Assembly: GCF_044324875.1 (NCBI RefSeq)
Contig: NZ_CP172185.1
Length of the DNA stretch: 64,000 nt
From: Escherichia coli
Lineage (GTDB): Bacteria > Pseudomonadota > Gammaproteobacteria > Enterobacterales > Enterobacteriaceae
Direction: 5' to 3' (one strand)
In this document: piece by piece, positions 11,044-38,183 of the stretch
How the letters are laid out: every line of letters starts with the position of its first letter
How positions within the stretch are numbered: position 1 is the stretch's first letter
Translations under genes and position numbers: made by a program
Notes under the pieces: model-generated
Told to the model about the DNA's origin: nothing
The model's input: the letters and a program-made list of their open reading frames with translations, nothing else
Database searches by the model: none

Positions 11044-11231
11044 TCAAACATACGTATTATCTTGCTTTAATTAATTACACTAATGCTTCTTCCCTTCGTT
11101 TTAGCGCCCCGCCGCAGTATCATGATATCGATAACCATAATAAATGTGTGGTAAATGGCGCATCGATCGCATTATTGATTTTGCGATTGAGGCAAAATAT
11201 ATGCCAGGTCTTCGCAACGGAATAACTATAA
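11044..11231 (+). promoter_or_regulatory. hyb operon promoter/control region
   Basis: 188-bp AT-rich non-coding interval immediately upstream of hybO; inference from position only. Confidence 0.4.
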
Positions 11232-12350: not shown

Positions 12351-12352
12351 CC

Positions 12353-17516: not shown

Positions 17517-17528
17517 CCGGAGTTAACA

Positions 17529-17777
17529 ATGTGTATTGGCGTTCCAGGCCAGGTGCTGGCTGTCGGTGAGGATATTCACCAGCTTGCGCAGGTTGAAGTA
17601 TGTGGTATCAAGCGCGACGTGAATATCGCCCTGATTTGTGAAGGTAACCCTGCCGATCTGCTGGGCCAGTGGGTGCTGGTACACGTCGGATTTGCCATGA
17701 GCATCATCGACGAAGATGAAGCCAAAGCCACATTAGACGCGCTGCGCCAAATGGATTACGACATTACCAGCGCGTGA
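17529..17777 (+). CDS. hybG: hydrogenase maturation factor (HypC paralogue)
   Basis: 82-aa ORF beginning MCIGVPGQV (the conserved MC(L/I)(G/A)(L/V)P HypC N-terminus). Confidence 0.9.
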
Positions 17778-17785
17778 TGATTAAA

Positions 17786-17815
17786 GCCGGATGCGGCGTA
17801 AATGCTTTATCCGGC
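17786..17815. repeat. REP (repetitive extragenic palindromic) element between convergent hybG and yghU
   Basis: GCCGGATGCGGCGTAAATGCTTTATCCGGC, the canonical REP pattern with imperfect dyad symmetry. Confidence 0.55.
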
Positions 17816-17846
17816 TACATAGCGATAAGCCTGCCAATGTTGCGAC

Positions 17847-20827: not shown

Positions 20828-21068
20828 ATTAATCAAAATATTCAATATTTATATATTCCAATATTTATTCATTTCATATGTGAATGTATTAACCAGTGGA
20901 ATACCTGTGTTTTGATTATTTCTAAAGGTTTTGAATGAATGCTTATTATCTGATACACAAGAAATAACACGCTTTTTATCGTTAAAAAATGATATTTCAC
21001 TTTGCCCACGCCGTTAAAGTCACTGATAATGCGTCCGTTCGTAAATTCAAAATGGCGTAATCTAATAT

Positions 21069-22568: not shown

Positions 22569-22578
22569 CCTTCCTGAA

Positions 22579-22612
22579 AATGCCCGGTCCTGGCGATCGG
22601 GCATTTCCATTT
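22579..22612. terminator. hairpin between convergent pitB and yghT
   Basis: ATGCCCG ...13 nt... CGGGCAT followed by TTTCCATTTTT. Confidence 0.4.
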
Positions 22613-22616
22613 TTGG

Positions 22617-23309
22617 CTAGTGATAACCACGCGCGGTCATAAAATCCGTAATCGCTTTTTCTGCATCAACCAGCACCTTTTCCAGTGGCTGATTGGCATC
22701 GATATCAACCAGTTGTGCACCACCAAAGGTTAACTGTGGCGTTATTGCAATCTTCCTCGCCAGCGATTCCCGTTTATGGTCGGGTTTACGCGCGCAGGCA
22801 ACTTCAAGGTCAACATTGAGTTTGATGACCAGATCAGGTTTATGGCTCGCCATCCAGTGAAACGCTTTACGTTCCTGGCTTGCCAGCCATGAGACAAACC
22901 GGCCGCCTTCAACGTTAGGCGGGAACACTGTACCATCGTAAGCGCCAGGAATTTGGTCCTGAGGATAACGGTCGGTTAGAACAATTAACCCGCGACGACG
23001 ACAGGCAAGCATATGACGAAAGCGCAGTAAGCGACGGGCGACAAACGCTGTAATTACCAGCGCCGGAACAGGGCCAGGCAATTTTTTTGCTGTTTTCACC
23101 TGATTTCGTTCAATTGTTTTATGTAAGGATTTTCCCATCAACGGTAATTTTGTCACTGCACGACCGACATTTCCGGCCTGTTTTCCTAAATGAACTCTTT
23201 CGGCTGCACCATATTTTTCGACAACGGTAATGAGATGTTCACACACCGTTGACTTGCCTGAACCATCGCTACCAATAACGGCAATTAATGGAGGTGTTAT
23301 TGACTGCAT
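22617..23309 (-). CDS. yghT: P-loop NTPase/kinase-like protein of unknown substrate
   Basis: 230-aa ORF; Walker [10 protein letters not shown]; shares DRYPQ and ARKPDH motifs with the two proteins below. Confidence 0.85.
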
Positions 23310-23482
23310 GAATATATCCTTTAATTTAAATATCCATTAAAAATATTTATTTGGTTAATATGTTTTTATGAAAGCGTAATTCAGGTCAATGTCACAATTA
23401 ACCATTGTCACAATAAGGTTGAACGGATATTCTGAGCACGGACCACGTAATATTCAATACATTATTTGCTGCCGGGTTTTTC

Positions 23483-24196
23483 GTGAATCAACGTAATATG
23501 TCAATAATTAATTCCACGCCAGTGCGTGTTATTGCCATTGTAGGATGTGATGGTTCAGGTAAATCGACCCTCACGGCAAGCCTGGTAAATGAACTGGCAG
23601 CAAGAATGCCAACAGAACACATTTATCTCGGGCAATCGTCCGGGCGAATTGGCGAATGGATTTCACAGCTCCCTGTTATTGGCGCACCTTTTGGGCGTTA
23701 TCTGCGAAGTAAAGCGGCACATGTGCACGAAAAGCCCTCAACACCGCCTGGCAATATTACTGCGCTGGTTATCTATCTGCTTTCCTGCTGGCGGGCGTAT
23801 AAGTTTCGCAAAATGTTGTGTAAAAGCCAGCAAGGCTATCTGCTCATCACCGACCGCTACCCGCAGGTTGAAGTGCCGGGTTTTCGCTTTGATGGCCCGC
23901 AATTGGCAAAAACCACGGGCGGTAACGGTTGGATAAAAATGTTAAGGCAGCGCGAGCTGAAGCTGTACCAATGGATGGCGTCTTATTTGCCCGTATTGTT
24001 GATTCGTCTTGGCATTGATGAACAAACGGCGTTTGCGCGTAAACCTGACCACCAACTGGCGGCGTTACAGGAAAAAATCGCCGTTACGCCGCAACTGACA
24101 TTCAATGGCGCAAAGATCCTTGAACTGGATGGTCGGCAACCAGCCGATGAAATTATGCAAGCGTCACTACGCGCAATTCACGCCGCGCTTTCCTGA
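23483..24196 (+). CDS. yghS: P-loop NTPase/kinase-like protein (paralogue of YghT/YghR)
   Basis: 237-aa ORF (GTG start as printed; alternative ATG 15 nt downstream at MSIINSTP); Walker A GCDGSGKST. Confidence 0.85.
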   Translation: MNQRNMSIINSTPVRVIAIVGCDGSGKSTLTASLVNELAARMPTEHIYLGQSSGRIGEWISQLPVIGAPFGRYLRSKAAHVHEKPSTPPGNITALVIYLLSCWRAYKFRKMLCKSQQGYLLITDRYPQVEVPGFRFDGPQLAKTTGGNGWIKMLRQRELKLYQWMASYLPVLLIRLGIDEQTAFARKPDHQLAALQEKIAVTPQLTFNGAKILELDGRQPADEIMQASLRAIHAALS

Positions 24197-24227
24197 TCAC
24201 CAAAATGGATAGGGGATGATTTAACGA

Positions 24228-24986
24228 ATGGATGCACTACAAACACAAACTGTTAATAGTACAACCGCGCCGCAGCCCAACTACATTCCGGGGCTGATTG
24301 CGGTGGTCGGGTGTGATGGCACCGGTAAATCCACGCTGACCACCGACCTGGTGAAATCGCTGCAACAACACTGGCAAACCGAGCGCCGCTATCTGGGGCT
24401 GCTCTCCGGCGAAGACGGCGACAAAATCAAACGATTGCCGTTGGTTGGCGTCTGGCTGGAACGGCGACTGGCGGCCAAATCCTCGAAAACCCAAAGCATG
24501 AAAACCAAATCTCCAGCGCTATGGGCGGCGGTGATTATGTACTGCTTCTCGCTGCGAAGAATGGCGAATCTACGCAAGGTTCAGCGACTGGCGCAAAGTG
24601 GCGTTCTGGTGGTCAGCGATCGCTTCCCGCAGGCTGAAATTTCGGGCTTTTATTATGACGGACCGGGGATCGGCGTCGAACGTGCGACCGGGAAAATCAG
24701 CATGTTTCTGGCGCAGCGCGAACGGCGTTTATACCAAAAAATGGCGCAATACCGTCCTGAATTAATCATTCGTTTGGGGATTGATATTGATACTGCCATC
24801 TCCCGCAAGCCTGACCATGACTATGCCGAGCTGCAGGACAAAATCGGCGTCATGTCGACGATTGGCTATAACGGCACAAAAATTCTTGAGATTGATTCCA
24901 GAGCGCCCTACAGCGAAGTGCTGGAACAGGCACAGAAGGCGGTTTCTCTGGTTGCCATCGTTTCTGACCGCCGAAGTTTAACTTAA
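24228..24986 (+). CDS. yghR: P-loop NTPase/kinase-like protein (paralogue of YghS/YghT)
   Basis: 252-aa ORF; Walker A GCDGTGKST, DRFPQ, SRKPDH. Confidence 0.85.
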   Translation: MDALQTQTVNSTTAPQPNYIPGLIAVVGCDGTGKSTLTTDLVKSLQQHWQTERRYLGLLSGEDGDKIKRLPLVGVWLERRLAAKSSKTQSMKTKSPALWAAVIMYCFSLRRMANLRKVQRLAQSGVLVVSDRFPQAEISGFYYDGPGIGVERATGKISMFLAQRERRLYQKMAQYRPELIIRLGIDIDTAISRKPDHDYAELQDKIGVMSTIGYNGTKILEIDSRAPYSEVLEQAQKAVSLVAIVSDRRSLT

Positions 24987-25031
24987 GGCTGGCGGGATAC
25001 TTTTTACTATCAACGATAAGGTCAGGCTGAA

Positions 25032-26381
25032 TTGGCGGGTTTTAACATCAAACATTGGTTTGCAGATGGCGCGTTTCGCACCATTATTCGCAATAGCGCC
25101 TGGTTAGGCTCCAGTAATGTCGTGAGCGCCTTGCTGGGTCTGTTGGCGCTCTCGTGTGCCGGTAAAGGGATGACGCCCGCCATGTTTGGCGTACTGGTGA
25201 TTGTGCAATCGTACGCCAAGTCGATCAGCGATTTTATTAAGTTTCAGACATGGCAGTTGGTGGTGCAGTACGGAACACCAGCATTAACCAACAATAATCC
25301 ACAGCAATTCCGCAATGTCGTCTCATTTTCCTTCTCGCTGGATATCGTCAGCGGCGCGGTGGCGATTGTCGGCGGCATTGCCTTACTCCCTTTTCTTTCC
25401 CATTCATTAGGTCTGGATGACCAAAGCTTTTGGCTGGCAGCGCTGTATTGCACGCTCATTCCTTCAATGGCTTCCTCCACGCCGACCGGCATTCTGCGTG
25501 CGGTAGATCGCTTCGACTTAATTGCTGTACAGCAGGCGACGAAACCTTTTCTGCGCGCAGCGGGGAGCGTCGTTGCCTGGTATTTTGACTTTGGTTTTGC
25601 GGGTTTTGTTATTGCCTGGTACGCCTCGAATCTTGTTGGCGGCACCATGTACTGGTGGTTTGCCGCACGTGAATTACGCCGCAGAAATATCCATAACGCG
25701 TTCAAATTGAATCTGTTTGAGTCTGCCCGACACATCAAAGGCGCGTGGAGTTTTGTCTGGTCAACCAACATTGCCCATTCCATCTGGTCGGCGCGTAATT
25801 CGTGCAGCACAGTGTTGGTGGGGATCGTGTTAGGACCCGCTGCCGCCGGGTTATTTAAAATCGCCATGACATTCTTCGACGCCGCCGGAACGCCAGCGGG
25901 TTTACTGGGCAAAAGTTTTTACCCAGAGGTGATGCGTTTAGATCCGCGTACCACCAGACCGTGGTTGTTAGGCGTGAAGTCAGGTTTACTGGCGGGCGGA
26001 ATCGGTATTCTGGTGGCGCTCGCGGTGTTGATCGTCGGCAAGCCGCTCATTTCGCTGGTGTTTGGCGTTAAGTATCTCGAAGCGTATGACCTGATTCAGG
26101 TGATGCTGGGCGCAATTGTGATCTCGATGCTGGGCTTCCCTCAGGAGTCATTGCTATTGATGGCGGGAAAACAGCGCGCTTTTCTCGTGGCGCAAACCAT
26201 CGCCTCAATCGGCTACATCGTATTGCTGTTCATGTTCTGTCATCTGTTTGGCGTGCTGGGGGCTGCATTTGCTTACTTCGGTGGGCAATGTCTGGATGTG
26301 GTGTTCTCGCTAATTCCGACCTTAAAGGCATTTTTTCAGCGCCATTCCTTGCTTTATAACTCAGCCGGAGAGAAATCCTGA
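25032..26381 (+). CDS. yghQ: Wzx/MurJ-like (MOP superfamily) polytopic membrane protein, putative lipid-linked substrate flippase
   Basis: Track ORF is 449 aa with a TTG start; first in-frame ATG about 46 codons in (MTPAMFGVLV). Longer than the 355-aa K-12 YghQ I remember. Start uncertain. Confidence 0.75.
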   Translation: MAGFNIKHWFADGAFRTIIRNSAWLGSSNVVSALLGLLALSCAGKGMTPAMFGVLVIVQSYAKSISDFIKFQTWQLVVQYGTPALTNNNPQQFRNVVSFSFSLDIVSGAVAIVGGIALLPFLSHSLGLDDQSFWLAALYCTLIPSMASSTPTGILRAVDRFDLIAVQQATKPFLRAAGSVVAWYFDFGFAGFVIAWYASNLVGGTMYWWFAARELRRRNIHNAFKLNLFESARHIKGAWSFVWSTNIAHSIWSARNSCSTVLVGIVLGPAAAGLFKIAMTFFDAAGTPAGLLGKSFYPEVMRLDPRTTRPWLLGVKSGLLAGGIGILVALAVLIVGKPLISLVFGVKYLEAYDLIQVMLGAIVISMLGFPQESLLLMAGKQRAFLVAQTIASIGYIVLLFMFCHLFGVLGAAFAYFGGQCLDVVFSLIPTLKAFFQRHSLLYNSAGEKS

Positions 26382-27217
26382 TGATGAGAAAATATTTCCC
26401 GCTTGAGGCGAGCGAGCGTCTATTTGTTGCGATTGAAGAAGATGATGTTGTTGATGCACAGGTCAGTTTGCCGCCGACTATCGCACTAAGTTGTACCACC
26501 GAAATCATCCATGATAATTACGCGTTATGCCTGCAATTCTGGCTCAATGGCGTCAATCGCCAGGAGTTACTGCGTTTAATATGCAAACAGGCCAAAGGCG
26601 ATGAGCTGACTGCTGATGAGCGCAAACAATTTAAATACATGCGAGCGCGCTACAAGCACCTGCGTTTTGCGCAACGGCTGTATTTAAAAAAGCATCAGGC
26701 CGGATTTTTATTCGGCAAAACGACCGTTTTTTTGGGGCGTTTTCAGGACGGCTTTCGTAACGGTAAGAAAAATATTGTGTCGTATTACGGCAACCTGTTA
26801 CGGGTTTATTTAAGCTCTCCGGTCTGGTCGTTGGTGAACTATTCATTACGCCATAGCCAGTTAGAAAGCGTAAGCGGTTTTATTGCCTATCGGCAAAAGC
26901 AAATGCATACCCTGAAAGAGATAATTGCCAAACCGCGACTAACTGGCAGGGAATTTCATGATGTGCGAAAAATCATCAGCCAGCAGGTTTCTTATTACGA
27001 CACCTTAAGATCGCTTGATCCTGAAAATAAAGAGGCGTTACTGATTTCCCGTTTTCTCGCCGCCATTAATGGTCTGATGGGGGATAAGCACGACGACATG
27101 GTGGCGGATGATATGGAAAACCGCCAGTCGTATGATGCACCGGTGGCGCTGGATAGCGATATTCGCCAGCGTTTAGAACTGCTGATTTCGCGTTTCCCAC
27201 TCTATCCGGAGCAATAA
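26381..27217 (+). CDS. hypothetical soluble protein, 278 aa, basic and predicted helical
   Basis: ATG overlaps yghQ stop (ATGA) with GGAGAGAAA Shine-Dalgarno; no family recognised. Confidence 0.6.
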   Translation: MMRKYFPLEASERLFVAIEEDDVVDAQVSLPPTIALSCTTEIIHDNYALCLQFWLNGVNRQELLRLICKQAKGDELTADERKQFKYMRARYKHLRFAQRLYLKKHQAGFLFGKTTVFLGRFQDGFRNGKKNIVSYYGNLLRVYLSSPVWSLVNYSLRHSQLESVSGFIAYRQKQMHTLKEIIAKPRLTGREFHDVRKIISQQVSYYDTLRSLDPENKEALLISRFLAAINGLMGDKHDDMVADDMENRQSYDAPVALDSDIRQRLELLISRFPLYPEQ

Positions 27218-27777
27218 TGCCATCTCGTTGGATTTTCGCTCTGATCATCGCACTCTTAGCGCCAGGCGCGGTGGCACACAATTTCGTCACTGGCAAAACG
27301 GTTACCCCTGTTTATATCCAGGAAGGCGGTGAGTTGCTTCTGAAAAGCGACGACGAAATTCACTACCAAAAGTGGAACAGCACACAGCTGGCGGGAAAAG
27401 TTCGCATTATTCAGTATATCGCCGGGCGTAAGTCGGCGAAGAAAAAGAACTCACTGTTAATTAAAGCGGTTGAAGCGGCAAACTTTCCGCAGGATCGTTT
27501 TCAGCCCACCACCATTGTGAACACCGATGATGCCATTTTTGGTACTGGCTATTTTGTCGTTGGCAAAATCGAAAAAAATAAACGCCGCTATCCGTGGGCG
27601 CAATTCGTTATTGACGGCAATGGACAGGGACGCGTTGCCTGGCGGTTGCCGGAGCAGAGTTCAACCATTCTGGTGCTGAATAAAGACGGGCAAATTCAGT
27701 GGGCAAAGGACGGCAGCCTGACGCCGGAAGAGGTAGATCATGTCATTGCGCTGGCGCAGAAACTGATCAATGAATAA
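27217..27777 (+). CDS. secreted/periplasmic protein, YtfJ-like, 186 aa
   Basis: N-terminal signal peptide MPSRWIFALIIALLAPGAVA; start overlaps previous stop (TAATG); resemblance to YtfJ is from memory. Confidence 0.55.
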   Translation: MPSRWIFALIIALLAPGAVAHNFVTGKTVTPVYIQEGGELLLKSDDEIHYQKWNSTQLAGKVRIIQYIAGRKSAKKKNSLLIKAVEAANFPQDRFQPTTIVNTDDAIFGTGYFVVGKIEKNKRRYPWAQFVIDGNGQGRVAWRLPEQSSTILVLNKDGQIQWAKDGSLTPEEVDHVIALAQKLINE

Positions 27778-27807
27778 AAAATTCAAAGGATTGAGGGCGT
27801 TAGCGAG

Positions 27808-28878
27808 ATGAAGCTGGTTGAACACTACATCATGCGTGGTACGCGCCGTCTGGTGTTGATTATCGTCGGTTTTCTGATCTTTATTTTCGCCAGCTACTCC
27901 GCACAGCGTTATCTGACCGAAGCGGCAAATGGGACATTAGCTCTTGATGTTGTGCTGGATATCGTTTTCTACAAAGTGCTGATTGCACTGGAGATGTTGT
28001 TACCTGTTGGACTGTATGTGTCAGTTGGCGTGACGCTAGGGCAGATGTATACCGATTCGGAAATTACCGCTATCTCTGCGGCGGGGGGCAGTCCGGGACG
28101 CTTGTACAAAGCCGTTCTTTATCTGGCGATACCGCTAAGTATTTTTGTCACCCTTCTGTCGATGTATGGTCGTCCGTGGGCTTATGCGCAGATTTATCAA
28201 CTGGAGCAACAGTCACAGTCGGAGCTGGATGTTCGCCAGTTGCGGGCAAAGAAATTTAACACTAACGATAACGGACGAATGATCCTTTCCCAGACGGTTG
28301 ATCAGGATAATAATCGCCTGACTGACGCGCTGATTTATACTTCTACTGCCAATCGAACCCGCATTTTCCGCGCCCGTTCGGTTGATGTGGTTGACCCATC
28401 TCCCGAGAAACCGACCGTTATGTTGCACAACGGGACAGCCTATCTTCTCGATCATCAGGGGCGTGACGACAACGAACAGATCTACCGTCATCTGCAATTA
28501 CATCTGAATCCGCTGGATCAAAGCCCTAACGTCAAACGCAAAGCGAAATCGGTCACGGAGCTGGCGCGCTCCGTCTTTCCAGCCGATCATGCCGAACTGC
28601 AATGGCGACAAAGCCGTGGCCTGACAGCATTGTTGATGGCGCTGCTGGCCATTTCATTAAGTCGGGTAAAACCGCGGCAAGGGCGATTTTCAACATTATT
28701 GCCACTGACGTTGCTGTTTATTGCCATTTTTTATGGCGGCGACGTCTGCCGTACGCTGGTGGCTAACGGCGCGATTCCCCTCATTCCTGGTTTGTGGTTA
28801 GTACCCGGACTCATGCTAATGGGCCTGCTGATGCTGGTCGCACGCGACTTCTCTTTGCTGCAGAAATTTTCCCGATGA
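27808..28878 (+). CDS. YjgP/YjgQ-family permease (LptF-like paralogue)
   Basis: 356-aa ORF with N-terminal TM cluster, long periplasmic middle region and C-terminal TM helices, the LptF/LptG architecture. Confidence 0.7.
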   Translation: MKLVEHYIMRGTRRLVLIIVGFLIFIFASYSAQRYLTEAANGTLALDVVLDIVFYKVLIALEMLLPVGLYVSVGVTLGQMYTDSEITAISAAGGSPGRLYKAVLYLAIPLSIFVTLLSMYGRPWAYAQIYQLEQQSQSELDVRQLRAKKFNTNDNGRMILSQTVDQDNNRLTDALIYTSTANRTRIFRARSVDVVDPSPEKPTVMLHNGTAYLLDHQGRDDNEQIYRHLQLHLNPLDQSPNVKRKAKSVTELARSVFPADHAELQWRQSRGLTALLMALLAISLSRVKPRQGRFSTLLPLTLLFIAIFYGGDVCRTLVANGAIPLIPGLWLVPGLMLMGLLMLVARDFSLLQKFSR

Positions 28879-29954
28879 ATGTTTTCAGTCGCTATTTAAT
28901 CCGTCATCTCTTTCTCGGTTTTGCCGCCGCCGCAGGGCTATTGCTGCCGCTTTTTACCACCTTCAACCTGATTAACGAACTGGATGATGTCAGCCCGGGT
29001 GGTTATCGCTGGACTCAGGCGGTGCTGGTGGTGCTGATGACCTTACCGCGCACACTGGTCGAACTTTCGCCGTTTATCGCATTATTGGGAGGGATTGTTG
29101 GCCTGGGGCAGTTATCGAAAAACAGTGAGCTTACCGCCATTCGCAGCACGGGGTTTTCTATCTTCCGTATTGCACTAGTGGCGCTGGTTGCCGGGATATT
29201 TTGGACTGTTTCGTTAGGCGCGATAGATGAGTGGGTGGCGTCGCCATTGCAGCAACAGGCGCTGCAAATCAAATCGACTGCCACCGCGTTGGGGGAGGAC
29301 GATGACATTACCGGCAATATGCTTTGGGCCAGGCGCGGTAATGAATTTGTGACGGTGAAATCGCTGAACGAGCAGGGCCAGCCTGTGGGCGTGGAGATAT
29401 TTCATTATCGCGACGATCTCTCGCTCGAATCCTACATTTTTGCACGCAGTGCCTCCATTGAAGACGACAAAACGTGGATCCTGCATGGTGTGAATCATAA
29501 AAAATGGTTGAATGGCAAAGAAACGCTGGAAACATCAGATAATCTTGCCTGGCAATCGGCCTTCACCAGTATGAATCTTGAAGAGTTATCGATGCCGGGA
29601 AATACTTTTTCTGTCCGTCAACTTAATCATTACATCCATTATTTGCAGGAAACTGGGCAACCCAGCAGCGAATACCGCCTTGCACTGTGGGAAAAACTGG
29701 GACAACCCATCCTGACCCTGGCGATGATTTTGCTGGCTGTGCCGTTTACCTTTAGTGCCCCGCGTTCGCCTGGGATGGGTAGCCGTCTCGCTGTAGGCGT
29801 CATCGTGGGCTTACTTACCTGGATCAGCTATCAAATCATGGTCAATCTGGGATTGCTATTTGCGTTGAACGCACCTGTTACCGCGCTCGGTTTACCGGTA
29901 GCGTTTGTGCTGGTGGCGTTGAGCCTGGTGTATTGGTATGACAGACAACATTAA
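28875..29954 (+). CDS. YjgP/YjgQ-family permease (LptG-like paralogue)
   Basis: Track ORF 28794..29954 is over-extended; start MNVFSRYLIRHLFLGF overlaps the upstream stop (ATGA), giving 359 aa with LptG-like topology. Confidence 0.7.
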   Translation: MNVFSRYLIRHLFLGFAAAAGLLLPLFTTFNLINELDDVSPGGYRWTQAVLVVLMTLPRTLVELSPFIALLGGIVGLGQLSKNSELTAIRSTGFSIFRIALVALVAGIFWTVSLGAIDEWVASPLQQQALQIKSTATALGEDDDITGNMLWARRGNEFVTVKSLNEQGQPVGVEIFHYRDDLSLESYIFARSASIEDDKTWILHGVNHKKWLNGKETLETSDNLAWQSAFTSMNLEELSMPGNTFSVRQLNHYIHYLQETGQPSSEYRLALWEKLGQPILTLAMILLAVPFTFSAPRSPGMGSRLAVGVIVGLLTWISYQIMVNLGLLFALNAPVTALGLPVAFVLVALSLVYWYDRQH

Positions 29955-29988
29955 ACCCGCCGTGGCGCAACACCACAGCGGGCTCACA

Positions 29989-31161
29989 TTACTGCTTCAG
30001 AGTAGCGAACGCTTGAATGATGGCATCAATTTGCTCACGACTGTGGGCAGCGTTTACGCTACAGCGCAGCAGCGTGATGCCTGCAGGCGCGGCAGGTGGC
30101 AGGATAAGATTCACATAAACGCCCAGCGAAATAAGCTCGCGCCAGATGCGTAAACCTTCCTCTTTCGAACCGATTATTACTGGCACTACCGGGCTAATAT
30201 GTGAACTTAACTCATAACCCAGTTTTTGCAGACCGTCATACAGATGGTTGGCATTATCCATCAGCTTTTGCCGCAACTCTGGTTGTGTAGCAATGGTTCT
30301 TAACGACGAGCGCACGGTCGCAATGCAGGACGGAGAAGGAGAGGCGGTAAAAATATACGGGCGGCTGCCGTAGCGCAGCACTTCCATCGCTTCCGAACCG
30401 ACAGCAAAACCGCCAATCGAGGCCAGACTTTTACTGAAAGTACCAACGATAATATCCACATCATCTTCAACGCCAACGGCTTCAGCCAGTCCGCGCCCCG
30501 TTGCGCCTAACACGCCAAACGAATGCGCTTCATCGACAATCAAATAACCACCGAGACGACGTTTGATATCAACAATTTCCGCCAGCGGCGCAACGTCACC
30601 GAGCATACTGTAGATGCCTTCAACGATGATAATCGCCTCTTTTGCCCGTTCACCGAGGCGAACCATGCGCCGTTCCAGATCTTTAGCATCGTTATGGCGG
30701 AAACGAATAATTTCCGCGCCACCGAGAGAACAGGCGTCATAAATACTGGCGTGGCTGTCGGCATCCAGTAACACCACGGCGTTATGGTCGGCAAGTGCGC
30801 TGATGACGCCTAAATTAGCGGTATAACCGGTTGAAAAAACGATAGCGGTAGGGCGATTAAAAAACTCGGCGATCTCTTTCTCTAACGCCAGATGCGGCGC
30901 ATAACTGCCGTTTGCCATACGAGAACCGGTGGTGCCGGTGCCTTGGGCCGCTAACGCTGCCTGACCTTCGGCGATGGCATCATGATTGAAGGTTAATCCG
31001 AGATAATTATTGGTCCCGGCCAGAATCACTTTTTTATTGCCGATCCGGCCTTCGGTGGCGGAATACACTTCATCAATACAGGTACCAAACGGCGTTAACC
31101 CGTTGTCACTAAATTGCAGTCGCTCGCCAGCAAGACGCGCATATTTATCGTATAGCCCCAT
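29989..31161 (-). CDS. PLP-dependent alpha-oxoamine synthase, serine-palmitoyltransferase-like
   Basis: 390 aa; motifs DEAHSFG and VGTFSKSLASIGGF (PLP lysine about residue 244, codon near 30430..30432). Confidence 0.8.
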   Translation of the reverse strand: MGLYDKYARLAGERLQFSDNGLTPFGTCIDEVYSATEGRIGNKKVILAGTNNYLGLTFNHDAIAEGQAALAAQGTGTTGSRMANGSYAPHLALEKEIAEFFNRPTAIVFSTGYTANLGVISALADHNAVVLLDADSHASIYDACSLGGAEIIRFRHNDAKDLERRMVRLGERAKEAIIIVEGIYSMLGDVAPLAEIVDIKRRLGGYLIVDEAHSFGVLGATGRGLAEAVGVEDDVDIIVGTFSKSLASIGGFAVGSEAMEVLRYGSRPYIFTASPSPSCIATVRSSLRTIATQPELRQKLMDNANHLYDGLQKLGYELSSHISPVVPVIIGSKEEGLRIWRELISLGVYVNLILPPAAPAGITLLRCSVNAAHSREQIDAIIQAFATLKQ

Positions 31162-31409
31162 TATTTATTCTCCAGCCATGGAAGTAGTGTTTCCATTAAT
31201 TGCGCAGGGGTTTTGACATCCAGCAGAATATTAATAGGAATGGAAATATCGAATCTGTCTTCCAGCATCATTAAGAGATCCATCACTTTGATCGACTCCA
31301 GGCCAAGATCGTTGACGAGATCGCTGTCGGGCTTAATTTCCACACCGTTTTCGACCAAATCCTGTAAACAGGAAAGGATGTAATCCATTACTATTTCACG
31401 ATTTACCAT
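31161..31409 (-). CDS. acyl carrier protein (dedicated, 82 aa)
   Basis: Small acidic protein with DLGLESIKVMDL (candidate phosphopantetheine serine); stop overlaps the downstream synthase start. Confidence 0.7.
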   Translation of the reverse strand: MVNREIVMDYILSCLQDLVENGVEIKPDSDLVNDLGLESIKVMDLLMMLEDRFDISIPINILLDVKTPAQLMETLLPWLENK

Positions 31410-31440
31410 AGAAACGTTAACACACCTTTAAACAAGACAA

Positions 31441-32355
31441 TCAAAATAGCCCGTTGCGTAATGCGTGTTCCAGGCTAATCCCGGGAAACCAATTAATATC
31501 TTCAGAAATACGGTTATTACTTGCTGACCAGTCGGCGTGGGTTAATTCACGGATTTTCGAGCGGGTCAGCATAGGTTCTTTACCTGCCAGGCGACTCAAC
31601 GTGGTACTGATATCCGCAAGGCAGGTGAGTACCGACAGAGGAATACCAACCATTCGAACGGAACCACAACGGGCGTCGGCGGCAAGCTGTCTTACGCGTT
31701 GCCAGTCATAGCCGCCGGCGACGCCATCGCATAATTCATAGGTTTGCGTCTGTACAGTTTCGGCGCTTAACCACTGCCCCACGGCTTGCGCGAAATCGGT
31801 GACGTGCAGGAAAGAGAGCTGTGTATCTGGCGCACCAAGTCGTGGCAGTAGGCCGCGCAGCATCCAGTCAAACAGCGGTTTTAACTCTTTATCGCCGGGA
31901 CCATACACGGCTGTCGGGCGAAAAATGCCCAGCGTAATTTCGTCAGCCATTGCGGTCAGTCGTTGTTCGGCGACGTGTTTGGAATTTGCGTACCAGGAGA
32001 GTTCGGGATGGCGCGCCGCCAGCGAAGAGATAAACAGAAAACGTTGGCAAAAGCCGCTCTCTTTTGCCGCTTGCATCAGGCGCAGGCTGCCGTCAACGTT
32101 ACAGCGGGTAAAAATCTCTTCTTTGTGTCCGCGCACTTGTCCGGCGCAATGGACCACCGCGCTGGCTCCGGCAACCAGTTCGCTAAGCGAATGTGTATCT
32201 TCCAGCGAACCGCGCACCCAGATGAGATTATCATTGACGTGAGCGCGGGCAGTACGCGTCAATGCGCGAACGTGAAAGCCGCGGGCGAGCAGGTTATCGA
32301 TAATATATTTACCGATAAACCCGGTAGCGCCCGTCACCGCGACAGTTTGATTCAT
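31441..32355 (-). CDS. NAD(P)-dependent epimerase/dehydratase-family (extended SDR) oxidoreductase, putative keto-reductase
   Basis: 304 aa; Rossmann VTGATGFIGKYI, catalytic YANSK; start overlaps upstream ligase stop by 4 nt. Confidence 0.75.
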   Translation of the reverse strand: MNQTVAVTGATGFIGKYIIDNLLARGFHVRALTRTARAHVNDNLIWVRGSLEDTHSLSELVAGASAVVHCAGQVRGHKEEIFTRCNVDGSLRLMQAAKESGFCQRFLFISSLAARHPELSWYANSKHVAEQRLTAMADEITLGIFRPTAVYGPGDKELKPLFDWMLRGLLPRLGAPDTQLSFLHVTDFAQAVGQWLSAETVQTQTYELCDGVAGGYDWQRVRQLAADARCGSVRMVGIPLSVLTCLADISTTLSRLAGKEPMLTRSKIRELTHADWSASNNRISEDINWFPGISLEHALRNGLF

Positions 32356-34073
32356 GCCAGGGATTCCTGCACATGAAGGCTTGCAGCATAAGCCTTCTGA
32401 TAGCGTTTTTTCGCTTCCGCACGGGCAGGCTTGCCGGAGGACGTTCGGGGAATACTGTGGGGCGGCAACAGATCGATAGCCGCGGTCACGCCAAATTCGC
32501 TTTGGATCCGTGCTGCCAGCGCGTGGATAAGCTGCCCGCGACGTTCTTCATCGCTGATCCGACACTGGATCTGCAAAATGATTTTTTCCTGGGCGGTAAC
32601 AAAAGCAATCGCATCGCCAGAATGAATTTCCGGTTCCTGTTCCGCAATATATTCAATATCTTGCGGCCAGATATTGCGGCCACGAATAATAATCAGATCT
32701 TTAATGCGTCCGGTGACATACAGATAACCGTCCAGCAGATAACCGAGGTCGCCGGTGTCTAACCAGCCCGTCGCGGCAATCTCGTCTTGTGAAATCTGGT
32801 CGCCAAAGTAACCGCTCATCAGGCTAGGGCCGGAGATGCAAATATGGCCTACCACACGTTCCGCGACAGGTATACCTGCTTCATTGCGGATTTCAATGCC
32901 ATGTTCCGGCAACGCTTTACCGCAGTTGACGAAAGTCGATACGGCGCGTGTTTCAGCATCCGGCGCGACGGCTTTGCCCTGATATTCGAGGATGTCGCGA
33001 TCCACTTCGTTAACCACAACCCCGGAAGCTTCATCAGAGAAGCTGACAGCCAGCGCATTTTCTGCCAGTCCGTAGCACGGCATGAACGTTTTATCGTCAA
33101 AGTTAACCTGACGAAAACATTCAGCGAATTGATGGAGTTGTTCTGCGGAGATCGGTTCTGCGCCAATACCAGCGACGCGCCAGCAGGAAAGATCCAGTTC
33201 AGCGAGATCTTTTTCATTCACGCGGCGCTGGCACAATTCATAGCCAAACGGCGGCGCAACGGAAACGGTGCCGCGATTTTTACTGATCAATTTAAGCCAT
33301 TGCAGAGGACGCATGGCAAAATCCTGAGTGCGCAAATAATCTACTGAGAGCTGCGTGGCGACGGGGGTCAGGAGAAAGCCGACCAGTCCCATATCATGGT
33401 AGAAAGGCAGCCAGGAGACGCAGCGGTCGCCAGGGCGTAATTTAATGCCATCGTGGCTTATAGCACGTAGATTAGCCATCACTTCGCGATGGGTGATAAT
33501 GACGCCACGGGGAAAACGGGTGCTGCCGGAGGTGTACTGGAGGTAGGCGATATCGTTCGGAACTGGACGCTGGAGTGCAACATCGGCTTCCGGTAATGCC
33601 TTAAACCAGGCGTGGCTTAAAACATGTAATTCGGGTTTGTTATGCGTCGCGGCATTGACCAGCGGTAACCACTCATCACCAGTGATAATGGCTGCGGGCT
33701 GGCAACTTGCCAGTAAACCCTGCAGTTTGGCGCTCCAGGAATCCCGCTGACCGACGCCCATTGGAATCGCCAACGGGACGGCGACTAAGCCGGCATACTG
33801 GCAGGAAAAAAAAGCCTCTACGAACCCGCTACTGGTTTCGGCAATCAGCGCCACGCGATCGCCTTTTTTCAGGTTCAGCGATAACAACCGCTTCGCACCA
33901 GCTTCGGCACGCGCTTTTAACGTCTGATATTCCAGTTGATCTTCAAGTTGGCAACGTCTGTCATAAAAATTCATTCCGGCGCTACTCAGAGCGGCGTAGT
34001 CCAAAGCATCAACCAGCGTTGGAAAATCGGCATAGCGCATAGGTAGGGAATGCGTAAAGATTTTATTAGACAT
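32352..34073 (-). CDS. fatty acyl-AMP ligase / acyl-ACP synthetase-type adenylating enzyme
   Basis: Track ORF 32352..34100 (582 aa); AMP-binding motif YTSGSTRFPRGV. Start uncertain (candidates at 34100, 34073, 34040); 34073 ATG chosen. Confidence 0.75.
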   Translation of the reverse strand: MSNKIFTHSLPMRYADFPTLVDALDYAALSSAGMNFYDRRCQLEDQLEYQTLKARAEAGAKRLLSLNLKKGDRVALIAETSSGFVEAFFSCQYAGLVAVPLAIPMGVGQRDSWSAKLQGLLASCQPAAIITGDEWLPLVNAATHNKPELHVLSHAWFKALPEADVALQRPVPNDIAYLQYTSGSTRFPRGVIITHREVMANLRAISHDGIKLRPGDRCVSWLPFYHDMGLVGFLLTPVATQLSVDYLRTQDFAMRPLQWLKLISKNRGTVSVAPPFGYELCQRRVNEKDLAELDLSCWRVAGIGAEPISAEQLHQFAECFRQVNFDDKTFMPCYGLAENALAVSFSDEASGVVVNEVDRDILEYQGKAVAPDAETRAVSTFVNCGKALPEHGIEIRNEAGIPVAERVVGHICISGPSLMSGYFGDQISQDEIAATGWLDTGDLGYLLDGYLYVTGRIKDLIIIRGRNIWPQDIEYIAEQEPEIHSGDAIAFVTAQEKIILQIQCRISDEERRGQLIHALAARIQSEFGVTAAIDLLPPHSIPRTSSGKPARAEAKKRYQKAYAASLHVQESLA

Positions 34074-34444
34074 ATACACCACGAAAAAATTGGATATCAA
34101 AAATAAAATGACAATAATGCGGTGGATTATATAGGCATAAAAGATAAATGAGATAGTATTTTCATCAGTGTGAAAATGAACATTGATTTAAATAATGAGT
34201 TTGAGTTTTTTTGTTTTTATTGTGAATGATATTTAATTTATGAATGTATTAAGAAGAAGCCTTGTCCGGTCGCCTTAAATCGACAAAAGGCATTGTGGCG
34301 CTTCTGTGTAGTCTCTGACCTTATCGTAATCATTAATAAATACTATTTATTCGTCGTTTGTATTCATTGGGTTGATTATTAAGGTGCCGTTCGTTGCTGT
34401 TGCAACCTGTTTGTCACCGTTAATTATTTGTTACCCACAGAACT
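34074..34444. promoter_or_regulatory. AT-rich divergent control region between the ligase operon and yghO
   Basis: About 370 bp non-coding and strongly AT-rich, between divergently oriented starts. Confidence 0.45.
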
Positions 34445-35587
34445 ATGGAATGCGATCTGCTGATGATTAAAATTGAAAAAGTAATTAATAAAAATGACCT
34501 TAAGGCATTTATCGCTTTTCCGTCATCACTTTATCCCGACGATCCAAACTGGATACCCCCTTTATTCATTGAACGCAACGAGCATTTGTCTGCGAAAAAT
34601 CCGGGGACGGACCATATCATCTGGCAGGCGTGGGTGGCAAAAAAAGCAGGGCAGATAGTTGGGCGTATTACCGCGCAAATCGATACCTTGCACCGCGAGC
34701 GTTACGGCAAAGATACCGGTCATTTCGGCATGATTGACGCCATTGATGATCCGCAGGTTTTTGCCGCGTTGTTTGGCGCAGCGGAAGCGTGGTTGAAGTC
34801 ACAAGGTGCAAGTAAGATCAGCGGTCCTTTCAGCCTGAATATCAATCAGGAAAGCGGATTACTGATTGAAGGTTTCGATACACCACCCTGTGCGATGATG
34901 CCACACGGCAAACCGTGGTATGCCGCGCATATTGAACAATTGGGTTATCACAAAGGCATTGATTTACTGGCGTGGTGGATGCAGCGAACCGATCTCACTT
35001 TCTCTCCGGCCCTAAAAAAACTGATGGATCAGGTGCGCAAAAAAGTGACCATTCGCTGCATCAATCGCCAGCGGTTTGCCGAAGAGATGCAGATCCTGCG
35101 TGAGATTTTCAACTCTGGCTGGCAGCATAACTGGGGATTTGTGCCGTTTACCGAACATGAGTTCGCGACTATGGGCGATCAGCTTAAGTACCTGGTGCCG
35201 GACGATATGATCTACATCGCCGAGATTGATTCTGCACCCTGTGCGTTTATTGTCGGCTTACCGAACATCAACGAGGCGATTGCCGATCTGAACGGATCGC
35301 TCTTTCCCTTCGGCTGGGCAAAATTGCTGTGGCGTTTAAAAGTCAGCGGTGTGCGAACTGCGCGAGTACCGCTGATGGGCGTGCGGGACGAGTATCAGTT
35401 TAGCCGCATCGGCCCGGTGATTGCGCTGTTATTGATTGAAGCCTTACGCGATCCGTTTGCCCGCCGGAAGATCGATGCGCTGGAAATGTCATGGATCCTC
35501 GAAACCAATATAGGCATGAATAACATGCTGGAACGCATTGGGGCGGAGCCGTACAAGCGTTACCGATTGTATGAAAAGCAGATTTAA
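34445..35587 (+). CDS. yghO: YghO-family protein, predicted acyl-CoA N-acyltransferase-like fold (intact here)
   Basis: 380-aa ORF MECDLLMIKIEKVINKNDLKAFIAFPSS... adjacent to glcC as yghO is in K-12; fold assignment is from memory. Confidence 0.65.
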   Translation: MECDLLMIKIEKVINKNDLKAFIAFPSSLYPDDPNWIPPLFIERNEHLSAKNPGTDHIIWQAWVAKKAGQIVGRITAQIDTLHRERYGKDTGHFGMIDAIDDPQVFAALFGAAEAWLKSQGASKISGPFSLNINQESGLLIEGFDTPPCAMMPHGKPWYAAHIEQLGYHKGIDLLAWWMQRTDLTFSPALKKLMDQVRKKVTIRCINRQRFAEEMQILREIFNSGWQHNWGFVPFTEHEFATMGDQLKYLVPDDMIYIAEIDSAPCAFIVGLPNINEAIADLNGSLFPFGWAKLLWRLKVSGVRTARVPLMGVRDEYQFSRIGPVIALLLIEALRDPFARRKIDALEMSWILETNIGMNNMLERIGAEPYKRYRLYEKQI

Positions 35588-35607
35588 TACCAGATCCTGT
35601 TAAGCGC

Positions 35608-35656
35608 AGGGGCGATCCCTCGCCCCTCGGGGAAAGGGTTAGGGTGAGGGTGAAAA
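35608..35656. repeat. GC-rich palindromic intergenic element between convergent yghO and glcC
   Basis: AGGGGCGA tccc TCGCCCCT perfect dyad followed by GGGGAAAGGGTTAGGGTGAGGGTG. Confidence 0.4.
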
Positions 35657-35662
35657 CTCGGC

Positions 35663-36433
35663 TCACATTCCCACCTTGTTCATCTCCAGCGGCACCGCCG
35701 AGCGAATCAAATGGTGGCCTTCCAGCTCGATATCGTGGAGATTCTTTTTCACGGTCCGCACATGATCGCGTGCTGCGCGCTGGGCGACGTGCGGCAGCCG
35801 CTGCAACACCGCGTTGTAGATCCGCGCATGCTGGCGATCGATCTGCTTTTTTTGCTGTGGTCGATGGTAGAGATTATTTACGCTGGCAAACACTGAATTA
35901 AACATCAGATCGGTCAATGATTGCAGCGTAAACACCAACACCTGATTGTGAGAAGCCTGACAAATGGCGAGATGGAAAGCGTGATCCAACTGCGCATGTT
36001 CGATCAGCGAAATCTCTTTGTTGTTCTCACTGGCGGCGAGCATTTTTTCATAACAGCGGGTTATCACAACAAAATCAGCCTGGGTTCCCAGCGTTGCCGC
36101 AAGCCTTGCCGATTCACCCTCCAGCAATGCGCGAACGTCGAGCAGATCGTACAGCGTTCGCGGCTGCGTGCTGAACAGATGAATTAGCGGGCTGGTGTCC
36201 TGCACCCGATTAAGCCGTGCGACACGAGAATCGCGACCCTGCGCCGTTTCAATAATCCCGCGCCCGCGCAGCACGGTCAGCCCTTCACGCAGTGCGGAGC
36301 GTGAGAAGCCGAGCTTTTCACACAGTCGACGTTCCGAGGGAAGCGGCTGACCGACCTTCAGTACGCCGTCGATAATTAACCGTTCGATACTCTCTGCAAC
36401 CACTTCGCAAATAGGGCGACGTTCATCTTTCAT
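35663..36433 (-). CDS. glcC: GntR/FadR-family transcriptional activator of the glycolate operon
   Basis: Start MKDERRPICEVVAESIERLIIDGVLKVGQPLPSERRL (codon 21 of track ORF). Confidence 0.9.
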   Translation of the reverse strand: MKDERRPICEVVAESIERLIIDGVLKVGQPLPSERRLCEKLGFSRSALREGLTVLRGRGIIETAQGRDSRVARLNRVQDTSPLIHLFSTQPRTLYDLLDVRALLEGESARLAATLGTQADFVVITRCYEKMLAASENNKEISLIEHAQLDHAFHLAICQASHNQVLVFTLQSLTDLMFNSVFASVNNLYHRPQQKKQIDRQHARIYNAVLQRLPHVAQRAARDHVRTVKKNLHDIELEGHHLIRSAVPLEMNKVGM

Positions 36434-36683
36434 TCCCGGACCTCGTGCACAGGTAGGACCAATTTTTCTGTTCTTGACTCGCAAAACACGCACATCACGT
36501 AAGTGATTATGTTACATCAATTTAACATTAAGTTAACCAAGACAAGGTCACAGAGCTGGAAAAAAAATGGTCTGACCGGTAGCTAAAGAGATAGACGAAA
36601 ACGAAAAGCCCGCTTAATAACTGTTCACAGAAGCAGCGCGCAAAAATCAGCTGCCACACAACACAACAAAGCGAAGCCTACTC
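36434..36683. promoter_or_regulatory. glcC / glcDEFGBA divergent promoter region
   Basis: 250-bp non-coding interval between divergent glcC and glcD; inference from position. Confidence 0.45.
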
Positions 36684-38183
36684 ATGAGCATCTTGTACGA
36701 AGAGCGTCTTGATGGCGCTTTACCCGATGTCGACTGCACATCGGTACTGATGGCACTGCGTGAGCATGTCCCTGGACTTGAGATCCTGCATACCGATGAG
36801 GAGATCATTCCTTACGAGTGTGACGGGTTGAGCGCGTATCGCACGCGTCCATTACTGGTTGTTTTGCCAAAGCAGATGGAACAGGTGACGGCGATTCTGG
36901 CTGTCTGCCACCGCCTGCGTATACCGGTGGTGACCCGTGGTGCAGGCACCGGGCTTTCTGGTGGCGCGCTGCCGCTGGAAAAAGGTGTGTTGTTGGTGAT
37001 GGCGCGCTTTAAAGAGATCCTCGACATTAATCCCATTGGTCGCCGCGCGCGCGTGCAGCCGGGCGTGCGTAACCTGGCGATCTCCCAGGCCGTTGCGCCG
37101 CATAATCTCTATTACGCGCCGGATCCTTCCTCACAAATCGCCTGTTCAATTGGCGGCAATGTGGCGGAAAATGCCGGTGGCGTACACTGCCTGAAATATG
37201 GTCTGACCGTACATAACCTGCTGAAAATTGAAGTGCAAACGCTGGACGGCGAGGCGCTGACGCTGGGATCGGATGCGCTGGATTCGCCTGGTTTTGACCT
37301 GCTGGCGCTGTTCACCGGATCGGAAGGTATGCTCGGCGTGACCACCGAAGTAACGGTGAAGCTGTTGCCGAAGCCGCCCGTGGCGCGGGTTCTGTTAGCC
37401 AGCTTTGACTCGGTAGAAAAAGCCGGACTTGCAGTTGGTGACATCATCGCCAATGGCATTATCCCCGGCGGGCTGGAGATGATGGATAACCTGTCGATCC
37501 GCGCGGCGGAAGATTTTATTCATGCCGGTTATCCCGTCGACGCCGAAGCGATTTTGTTATGCGAGCTGGACGGCGTGGAGTCTGACGTACAGGAAGACTG
37601 CGAGCGGGTTAACGACATCTTGTTGAAAGCGGGCGCGACTGACGTCCGTCTGGCACAGGACGAAGCAGAGCGCGTACGTTTCTGGGCCGGTCGCAAAAAT
37701 GCGTTCCCTGCGGTAGGACGAATCTCCCCGGATTACTACTGCATGGATGGCACCATCCCGCGCCGTGCCCTGCCTGGCGTACTGGAAGGCATTGCCCGTT
37801 TATCGCAGCAATATGATTTACGTGTTGCTAACGTCTTTCATGCCGGAGACGGCAACATGCACCCGTTAATCCTTTTCGATGCCAACGAACCCGGTGAATT
37901 TGCCCGCGCGGAAGAGCTGGGCGGGAAGATCCTCGAACTCTGCGTTGAAGTTGGCGGCAGCATCAGTGGGGAACATGGCATCGGGCGAGAAAAAATCAAT
38001 CAAATGTGCGCCCAGTTCAACAGCGATGAAATCACGACCTTCCATGCGGTCAAGGCGGCGTTTGATCCCGATGGTTTGCTGAACCCAGGAAAAAACATTC
38101 CCACGCTACACCGCTGTGCTGAATTTGGTGCCATGCATGTGCATCACGGTCATTTACCTTTCCCTGAACTGGAGCGTTTCTGA
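36684..38183 (+). CDS. glcD: glycolate oxidase FAD-binding subunit
   Basis: 499-aa ORF MSILYEERLDGALPDVD... Confidence 0.95.
   Translation: MSILYEERLDGALPDVDCTSVLMALREHVPGLEILHTDEEIIPYECDGLSAYRTRPLLVVLPKQMEQVTAILAVCHRLRIPVVTRGAGTGLSGGALPLEKGVLLVMARFKEILDINPIGRRARVQPGVRNLAISQAVAPHNLYYAPDPSSQIACSIGGNVAENAGGVHCLKYGLTVHNLLKIEVQTLDGEALTLGSDALDSPGFDLLALFTGSEGMLGVTTEVTVKLLPKPPVARVLLASFDSVEKAGLAVGDIIANGIIPGGLEMMDNLSIRAAEDFIHAGYPVDAEAILLCELDGVESDVQEDCERVNDILLKAGATDVRLAQDEAERVRFWAGRKNAFPAVGRISPDYYCMDGTIPRRALPGVLEGIARLSQQYDLRVANVFHAGDGNMHPLILFDANEPGEFARAEELGGKILELCVEVGGSISGEHGIGREKINQMCAQFNSDEITTFHAVKAAFDPDGLLNPGKNIPTLHRCAEFGAMHVHHGHLPFPELERF

Follow-up and report, generated by a model that had tools for sequence, protein, structure and literature searches.

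We analysed a 64,000-nucleotide stretch of an Escherichia coli genome (contig NZ_CP172185.1, assembly GCF_044324875.1; hereafter the window), and within it the region between yghQ (25032-26381, + strand) and yghO (34445-35587, + strand), two genes that in the laboratory strain K-12 flank a copy of the insertion sequence (IS) IS5. The original prediction, made from the letters of the window, had placed about 8 kb of coding sequence without any IS between a longer yghQ and a full-length yghO, and the list of open reading frames (ORFs) bears this out: both flanking genes are full-length (449 and 380 aa), eight intact genes lie between them, and no transposase ORF or IS is found in the interval. 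Four of the eight are encoded on the + strand (278, 186, 356 and 359 aa) and four on the - strand (390, 82, 304 and about 573-582 aa). Taken together, the evidence makes it very probable that this interval is the core of an E. coli locus for the synthesis and export of a sphingolipid (dihydroceramide), and that K-12 lost this core by stepwise, IS5-associated deletion. The region is not peculiar to the isolate analysed. A megablast search of 5,426 complete E. coli genomes finds positions 22000-38000 at 97-99% identity, and RefSeq annotates the best-matching isolate in the order pitB, yghT, yghS, yghR, 'lipopolysaccharide biosynthesis protein' (yghQ), a hypothetical protein, YtfJ family, lptF, lptG, spt, acyl carrier protein, NAD-dependent epimerase/dehydratase, fatty acyl-AMP ligase, yghO and glcC. 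All 13 ORFs of the locus are intact in the window, in BL21(DE3) and in that isolate, and the window and BL21 proteins are 96-100% identical.

The genes of the - strand resemble those of ceramide synthesis. The product of spt (29989-31161, -) scores 600 bits against the NCBIfam serine palmitoyltransferase model NF047599 (cut-off 500), carries the pyridoxal phosphate (PLP)-lysine and His/Asp motifs of the family (DADSHAS, DEAHSFG and GTFSKS) and is 99.5% identical to BL21 Spt. Adjoining it, acpR (31161-31409, -) encodes a dedicated acyl carrier protein (ACP) that matches ACP families and has the motif LGLES at its phosphopantetheine site; its sequence is 100% identical to that of its BL21 counterpart. 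In the same operon, aasR (32352-34100, -) encodes an acyl-ACP synthetase of the fatty acyl-AMP ligase (FAAL) type, with 873 bits against NF006624 (cut-off 600) and 97.9% identity to BL21 AasR; its start codon is uncertain, the Prokaryotic Genome Annotation Pipeline (PGAP) giving 562-573 aa. Between acpR and aasR lies a gene (31441-32355, -) for an extended short-chain dehydrogenase/reductase (SDR) of the NAD-dependent epimerase/dehydratase family, with the motifs GATGFIG and YANSK and 32% identity to the protein at the cerR position of Caulobacter sp. BP25. From its motifs and context we predict that this SDR is a CerR-type reductase acting on the 3-oxo group. Both it and Caulobacter CerR start directly at the Rossmann motif, so we claim no difference between them in signal peptide.

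Part of this assignment has been probed biochemically. Padilla-Gomez et al. (2022; PMC9386255) cloned and assayed Spt, AcpR and AasR from the BL21(DE3) locus (ECD_02850-ECD_02854). AcpR_Ec (ECD_02853) carries 4'-phosphopantetheine; together with AasR_Ec (ECD_02851) and SPT_Ec (ECD_02854) it yields a compound that co-migrates with 3-oxo-sphinganine, and SPT_Ec prefers acyl-AcpR over acyl-CoA. The same authors named ECD_02852 and 'yghO ECD_02850' as the reductase and N-acyltransferase genes. Their study attributes the locus to 'E. coli B' (BL21 and the enterotoxigenic strain ETEC B7A) and leaves K-12, IS5, the transport and accessory genes and prevalence aside.

The remaining enzyme of ceramide synthesis would be YghO, for which Pfam-A and NCBIfam contain no matching model. 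The protein is 45% identical over residues 18-380 to a protein of Caulobacter sp. BP25 encoded right after lptG2, and because this is the position published for bcerS (CCNA_01212), we assign YghO, on sequence and gene order, as an orthologue of bCerS (bacterial ceramide synthase, CerS). Its structural model (mean predicted local distance difference test score, pLDDT, 89.4) has a tandem-GNAT architecture, and the structures it matches best belong to amine N-acetyltransferases, 5kf1, 2wpw and MshD among them. The family is large, with 6,480 representatives at 50% clustering. Three loci of distant members adjoin, respectively, LptF/LptG genes (L007), ACP and Spt genes (L008), and SDR and Spt genes (L009). 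We surveyed 80 loci on contigs taken from one genome per species, counting homologues within 10 kb of the yghO homologue: spt was found in 38, acp in 36, SDR in 37, FAAL in 36, lptF in 38 and lptG in 46, in alpha-, beta-, gamma- and deltaproteobacteria and Gemmatimonadetes. With an Spt that uses AcpR, an acp gene adjoining spt, AasR, a predicted CerR-type SDR and a putative bCerS, the E. coli locus holds the set that characterizes a proteobacterial ('Rhodobacteria') dihydroceramide cluster.

Some members of the YghO family show other arrangements. P0121 (784 aa), P0132 (630 aa) and P0190 (940 aa) carry extra N- or C-terminal regions of 250-560 residues, and these fusion partners could hint at substrates or partners. 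At several beta- and gammaproteobacterial loci (L007, 1321-2124; Nitrosomonas, L024-L030) the yghO homologue is followed by a gene for a nucleotidyltransferase (NTP_transf_3) and then by lptF/lptG paralogues; the spt operon of these loci is over 10 kb distant, an arrangement that may indicate a different head-group module. Serratia liquefaciens has a gene for a DgkA-type lipid kinase (DAGK_prokar; L003/L004, 11354-11716) directly downstream of its yghO orthologue, and then a MatE transporter gene; these neighbours may be linked to the lipid pathway or may be coincidental.

Two of the + strand genes encode a predicted export system. The products of lptF2 (27808-28878, +) and lptG2 (28875-29954, +), paralogues of LptF and LptG, score 318 bits against TIGR04407 (cut-off 230) and 304 bits against TIGR04408 (cut-off 240), and each consists of three transmembrane (TM) segments, a soluble domain and three further TM segments. 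In both respects they resemble the permeases of canonical LptB2FG, with its three-TM, periplasmic domain, three-TM layout; they differ in being second copies that lie inside a lipid-synthesis locus, with a sphingolipid as presumed cargo. No ORF for an ATP-binding cassette (ABC) ATPase is found between 22.6 and 35.6 kb of the window. Uchendu, Isom and Klein (bioRxiv, April 2026; 10.64898/2026.04.12.717747) reported that Caulobacter tolerates deletion of lptF2 and lptG2 only in a background without spt or cpgB, and that LptF2 and LptG2 form a complex that binds LptB; their Figure 2B draws a 'sphingolipid operon' for the E. coli strain UTI89. Before that preprint, according to the literature of the field, no sphingolipid flippase or transporter was known. 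We predict that LptF2 and LptG2 are a sphingolipid exporter pair of the Caulobacter type.

The other genes form an accessory set. The yghT (22617-23309, -), yghS (23483-24196, +) and yghR (24228-24986, +) genes, all kept in K-12, encode three P-loop paralogues whose Walker A and DRY motifs (DRYP in YghT) resemble those of thymidylate kinases and which match the NCBIfam dTMP-kinase model weakly, far below its cut-off. In Serratia, Erwinia, Rosenbergiella and Mangrovibacter they lie together with the spt cluster, and in different enterobacterial genera they and yghQ keep their place beside the spt operon in spite of rearrangement. Genes like yghS/R and yghQ also adjoin the spt operon of a betaproteobacterial metagenome-assembled genome (L036), the YghR homologue being 55-56% identical. 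We considered whether YghT, YghS and YghR might be homologues of the Caulobacter ceramide kinase CpgB and rejected this, CpgB being an LCB5/DAG-kinase-type enzyme with a GGDG motif and not a P-loop protein. A 38-nt imperfect inverted repeat at 23248-23285 and 23531-23568 corresponds to the Walker A coding segments of the divergent paralogues yghT and yghS.

YghQ has many hydrophobic, TM-like segments and a weak match to the NCBIfam MOP flippase model (33 bits, cut-off 273), and its Serratia orthologue matches Pfam Polysacc_synt and Polysacc_synt_3. In four non-enterobacterial loci, L036 included, a YghQ-like gene (26-29% identity) adjoins spt or lies close to the yghO homologue. This putative MOP/Wzx-type membrane protein is our candidate for an inner-membrane flippase of the sphingolipid. 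Downstream of yghQ, the 278-aa hypothetical protein (26381-27217, +) has a two-lobed, all-helical fold like that of CHAD proteins and is restricted to Enterobacterales plus Luteibacter loci. Scanned one by one, the protein and 18 homologues gave no Pfam CHAD match, nor any other match in Pfam-A or NCBIfam, and because of this we call it a CHAD-fold protein and not a member of the CHAD family. It also differs from described CHAD proteins (Ricinus 6qv5, E. coli YgiF) in having no CYTH partner and in lying among lipid-synthesis genes instead of genes for polyphosphate metabolism, CHAD being a polyphosphate-binding helical domain. The next gene (27217-27777, +) encodes a 186-aa YtfJ-family periplasmic protein with a signal-like hydrophobic N-terminus (TIGR01626, 213 bits, cut-off 151). 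By sequence search, none of YghR, the YtfJ-like protein and the 278-aa protein has a relative in the PDB. Judging from gene context, the set formed by YghT/S/R, YghQ, the CHAD-fold protein and the YtfJ-like protein may serve flipping and/or head-group chemistry.

The closest known system is that of Caulobacter crescentus (CCNA_01212-01226, also CC_1152-CC_1168), where the published order is acps (01223), cerR (01222), acp (01221), spt (01220) and, further along, lptF2 (01214), lptG2 (01213) and bcerS (01212). Caulobacter sp. BP25 has the corresponding order FAAL-SDR-ACP-Spt, then LptF2-LptG2-YghO homologue. The E. coli locus shares with it the five ceramide genes, the order aasR-cerR-acp-spt, the presence of bcerS and lptF2/lptG2 in the same neighbourhood and the lack of an LptB gene. 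Between E. coli and Caulobacter sp. BP25 the identity is 55% for Spt, 45% for YghO, 43% for AcpR, 32% for the SDR and 23% for LptG2. On the other hand, E. coli has no homologues of cpgABC, which provide the ceramide-phosphoglycerate head group, and no LptC2, whereas YghT/S/R, YghQ, the CHAD-fold protein and the YtfJ-like protein of the E. coli set have no tblastn match in the Caulobacter locus examined. Of the two organisms, it is Caulobacter for which native production is documented.

These comparisons suggest the following scheme. AasR would adenylate a long-chain fatty acid and load it onto AcpR, and Spt would condense acyl-AcpR with serine to give 3-oxo-sphinganine, two steps shown by over-expression of the BL21(DE3) proteins, which are nearly identical. 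Judging from their Caulobacter orthologues, YghO (bCerS) would N-acylate the long-chain base and the CerR-like SDR would reduce the 3-oxo group. LptF2 and LptG2 would extract the lipid from the inner membrane toward the outer membrane, going by the results of the Caulobacter preprint, and since the locus encodes no ABC ATPase of its own they would probably be powered by the housekeeping ATPase LptB. The accessory set, specific to Enterobacterales, may flip the lipid, decorate it, or both.

In order to define what K-12 has lost, we aligned K-12 chromosomes to the window. BLASTN shows the MC4100 locus to be collinear with positions 21000-26100 and 34485-35593, the 8,384 bp between them (26101-34484) being absent and replaced by one IS5. 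In MG1655 RefSeq this element is IS5LO (3130146-3131340), 1,195 bp long with both terminal repeats, which agrees with the IS5 copy that the original prediction placed between yghQ and yghO. The alignment to K-12, proposed there as a check, shows that the eight genes are absent from MG1655-type strains. The host sequence is TTAG to the left of IS5 (TCAG in the window) and TTAA to the right, with no duplicated target, and both flanks fit the target preference of IS5. Since the two flanks differ, no target is duplicated and both neighbouring ORFs are cut, the structure is therefore a deletion and not a plain insertion: an intact IS5, non-identical YTAR flanks, missing host sequence and truncated neighbours are all features of an IS5-associated adjacent deletion. 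K-12 YghQ ends at residue 355 of 449 (79% of the gene is kept) with a TAG stop formed at the junction, and MG1655 YghO, annotated with 390 aa, starts inside IS5, its first 24 residues being IS5-encoded in place of the native 14. The native yghO promoter region (34101-34444) is gone.

The lineage with this deletion includes MG1655, W3110, BW25113 and MC4100. These strains keep yghT, yghS, yghR, most of yghQ and the chimeric yghO, and are null for the core only. The earlier claim that yghO is a pseudogene in K-12 is not reflected in the current MG1655 RefSeq annotation (b2981/b2983), which flags neither gene, truncated or chimeric as they are, and gives yghO the product name 'putative DNA-binding transcriptional regulator' (390 aa) and treats yghQ as the intact gene of a transporter (355 aa); PGAP marks yghQ as partial in MC4100. 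Keio- and ASKA-based studies (PMC8170033, PMC6199490) treated the truncated yghQ and the IS5-chimeric yghO as native genes, a chlorhexidine study treats K-12 yghQ as an intact flippase, and some literature describes IS5 as simply 'inserted inside yghO' (PMC11677980).

The expectation that laboratory K-12 lacks the core of the system proved right for the four strains above, none of which has any of the eight genes, and wrong for K-12 NCM3722, which retains about 7 kb of the locus. Lyons et al. (2011; PMC3045373) reported 7 kb in NCM3722 that are missing from MG1655 and that restore yghO, together with an extra IS5 in the gene for a phosphopantetheine protein. They phrased the 7 kb as 'inserted in NCM3722', annotated Spt as an oxononanoate synthase and read the genes as a possible biotin-related cluster; the sphingolipid locus was not recognised. 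Aligning the NCM3722 chromosome to the window, we find that its left IS5 junction is exactly that of MG1655 (window 26100) and that only 1,356 bp (26101-27456) are missing, which takes away the 3' end of yghQ, the 278-aa gene and part of the ytfJ-like gene at its 5' end. On its right side this first IS5 is flanked by the TTAA at 27457. The second IS5 has the same orientation and lies in acpR (31196-31199) with a clean TTAA/TTAA duplication. These junctions suggest a stepwise route. An NCM3722-like ancestor would have acquired IS5 at yghQ codon 355 with the 1.36-kb adjacent deletion, a second IS5 would then have inserted into acpR, and in the MG1655/W3110 lineage another adjacent deletion would have started where the first IS5 ends on the right and reached the TTAA at 34485 (yghO codon 14), removing 27457-34484 (about 7 kb) and the second IS5 with it. 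The K-12 state is derived.

To place K-12 among other strains, we scored the core as present in the 5,426 complete E. coli genomes when at least 80% of 26101-34484 was covered. By this measure 4,063 genomes (74.9%) carry it, and 1,159 have no match to it. The left K-12 junction (yghQ'-IS5) occurs in 346 genomes and the right one (IS5-'yghO) in 353; among the matches listed, all carriers are laboratory strains (MG1655, C600, J53, ER1709 and others). We sampled the structural classes of loss without enumerating them. In O157:H7 the replacement is larger and different, pitB being truncated and followed by IS3/IS66 copies, and the pitB'-IS3 junction is present in 296 genomes. Strain 961 has IS26 after yghQ codon ~296 with loss through to tRNA-Phe, in FORC_082 an IS1 joins gss to yghO, and in strain F829 an IS1 lies within yghS. 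Other E. coli lineages have lost the locus independently, through IS1, IS26 and IS3/IS66 events. In O157:H7 FWSEC0004 (9300-18300), the sequence from mid-pitB onward gives way to a stack of IS3, IS66 and IS1203 with a frameshifted pseudogene of a TcdA/TcdB-type glycosyltransferase.

Where the locus is present, it is under constraint. BL21(DE3) carries all of it with every ORF intact, E. albertii has an orthologue of the 278-aa core protein (88% identity), and the same gene set, rearranged, is found in Serratia, Pseudocitrobacter, Hafnia, Erwinia, Rosenbergiella and Mangrovibacter. By the Nei-Gojobori method, the ratio of nonsynonymous to synonymous substitution rates (dN/dS) is 0.00-0.16 for all 13 genes against BL21, 0.02-0.16 against a more divergent E. 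coli, where dS reaches 0.7 (for the 11 genes lying fully inside that locus), and stays low against Pseudocitrobacter and Hafnia. Every gene is under purifying selection. The presence of the core in three quarters of the genomes and of the set in E. albertii and other Enterobacterales, with low dN/dS, therefore indicates, in line with the original prediction, an ancestral locus and not a strain-specific island; it is kept by selection where present and has been lost repeatedly through IS activity.

Candidate regulatory elements were sought in the intergenic sequences. The divergent aasR-yghO region (34101-34444), wholly deleted in MG1655-type K-12, is AT-rich, with a GC content of 0.41-0.44. 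A scan for consensus promoters found fewer sites there than in shuffled sequence and is uninformative, and Rfam gave no match at the gathering threshold between 20.5 and 37 kb of the window. The 13-mer CTGACCTTATCGT occurs exactly twice in the 64 kb, at 25013-25025 (-), 7 bp upstream of the yghQ start, and at 34315-34327 (+), within the aasR-yghO region; other E. coli strains have it exactly, with no conservation in other genera. An operator common to the two sites or mere chance could explain it, and as it was picked post hoc we do not claim it as an operator. Between yghO and glcC the window has an 84-bp G-rich element (35594-35677, containing GCCCCTCGGGGAAAGGGTTAGGGTGAGGGTG), of which K-12 has only ~9 bp and which we take to resemble the small Box C or repetitive extragenic palindromic (REP)-type intergenic repeats of E. 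coli.

Several points weigh against our interpretation of the locus. LptF2/LptG2, CerR, YghO and all the accessory proteins were assigned by homology and gene context, and the order of the IS5 steps in K-12 is inferred by parsimony from two extant strains, as the simplest route. The locus is dispensable and repeatedly lost. Our literature search found no report of a sphingolipid from wild-type E. coli, and reviews still give E. coli three major membrane lipids only. Moreover, BL21(DE3) with empty vectors gave no 3-oxo-sphinganine-like spot on thin-layer chromatography (PMC9386255), and because of this the native locus seems to be silent or very weakly expressed in rich medium. 

This last result also speaks for the least improbable of the alternatives, namely that E. 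coli carries the locus as a silent relic in decay that no longer has a function, its loss from K-12 being inconsequential. Recurrent, independent IS-mediated losses and an AT-rich regulatory region compatible with silencing point the same way. Nevertheless, a relic of this kind appears unlikely, as none of the 13 ORFs is disrupted in the window, in BL21 or in the isolate that matches it best, and the dN/dS values given above, low within E. coli and between genera, do not follow the pattern of neutral decay.

Less likely again is that the cluster makes something other than a sphingolipid, be it an intermediate of biotin or of another alpha-oxoamine, a signal of the CqsA type or some other lipid of the N-acyl amino class. 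Spt, a member of the alpha-oxoamine synthase family, does score against BioF, Kbl and CqsA-type models, but below their cut-offs, and only the cut-off of the serine palmitoyltransferase model is exceeded. The oxononanoate synthase annotation of Lyons et al. and the fact that no native product has been seen are set against the co-migration of the BL21 Spt, AcpR and AasR product with 3-oxo-sphinganine, and against the match of the five-gene set and its operon order to Caulobacter ceramide genes that are genetically proven. Finally, that the 8 kb are a horizontally acquired island, K-12 representing the ancestral empty site with an unrelated IS5, is hardly credible: absence of the core from 1,159 genomes, variable gene order between genera and the 'inserted inside yghO' wording would fit it, but both ORFs next to the K-12 IS5 are truncated by comparison with the conserved, full-length forms found elsewhere, the IS5 flanks differ without target duplication, NCM3722 is a partial intermediate with the same left junction, E. 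albertii has the 278-aa core gene, and the empty sites of other strains are each bordered by a different IS.

With the sphingolipid locus as the preferred reading, it should be said what is new. The original prediction regarded the system as uncharacterised, which is no longer accurate given the 2011 report of the gap (PMC3045373), the 2022 assays in BL21(DE3) (PMC9386255) and the 2026 drawing of the UTI89 operon (bioRxiv 10.64898/2026.04.12.717747); what the locus is, and that MG1655 lacks it, had already been published. What we add are the prevalence figures, the junctions at base level, the stepwise IS5 path with its NCM3722 intermediate, the catalogue of independent IS-mediated losses, the selection analysis and the CHAD fold of an unannotated protein. 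The value of the work is one of consolidation and quantification, not of discovery. In practical terms, laboratory strains are not uniformly null, BL21(DE3) carrying the complete, intact locus. As BL21(DE3) is the usual host for heterologous sphingolipid enzymes, background from its own locus is a practical concern, and the same concern is invoked in PMC9386255. A strain series is at hand, formed by MG1655 (no core), NCM3722 (acpR::IS5, without the 278-aa gene and part of the ytfJ-like gene) and the intact BL21(DE3).

Gram-negative envelope biology takes as its reference E. coli K-12, an organism that, as usually taught, lacks sphingolipids. Of the E. coli sequenced so far, about three quarters have the complete set of genes for a ceramide pathway, with what is predicted to be their own LptFG-type exporter, under purifying selection; K-12 has lost the core, and work in K-12 is therefore blind to the system. 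As a tentative proposal, which we regard as possible and still rather doubtful, most natural E. coli and BL21(DE3) might make an outer-membrane sphingolipid under non-laboratory conditions, with a head group or trafficking that, through the accessory set, would be unlike that of the Caulobacter ceramide phosphoglycerate. If so, the CHAD-fold protein may bind phosphate or polyphosphate, YghQ would be the missing inner-membrane sphingolipid flippase, and the textbook view of a three-lipid E. coli envelope would be an artefact of the stepwise erosion of this locus by IS5 in K-12.

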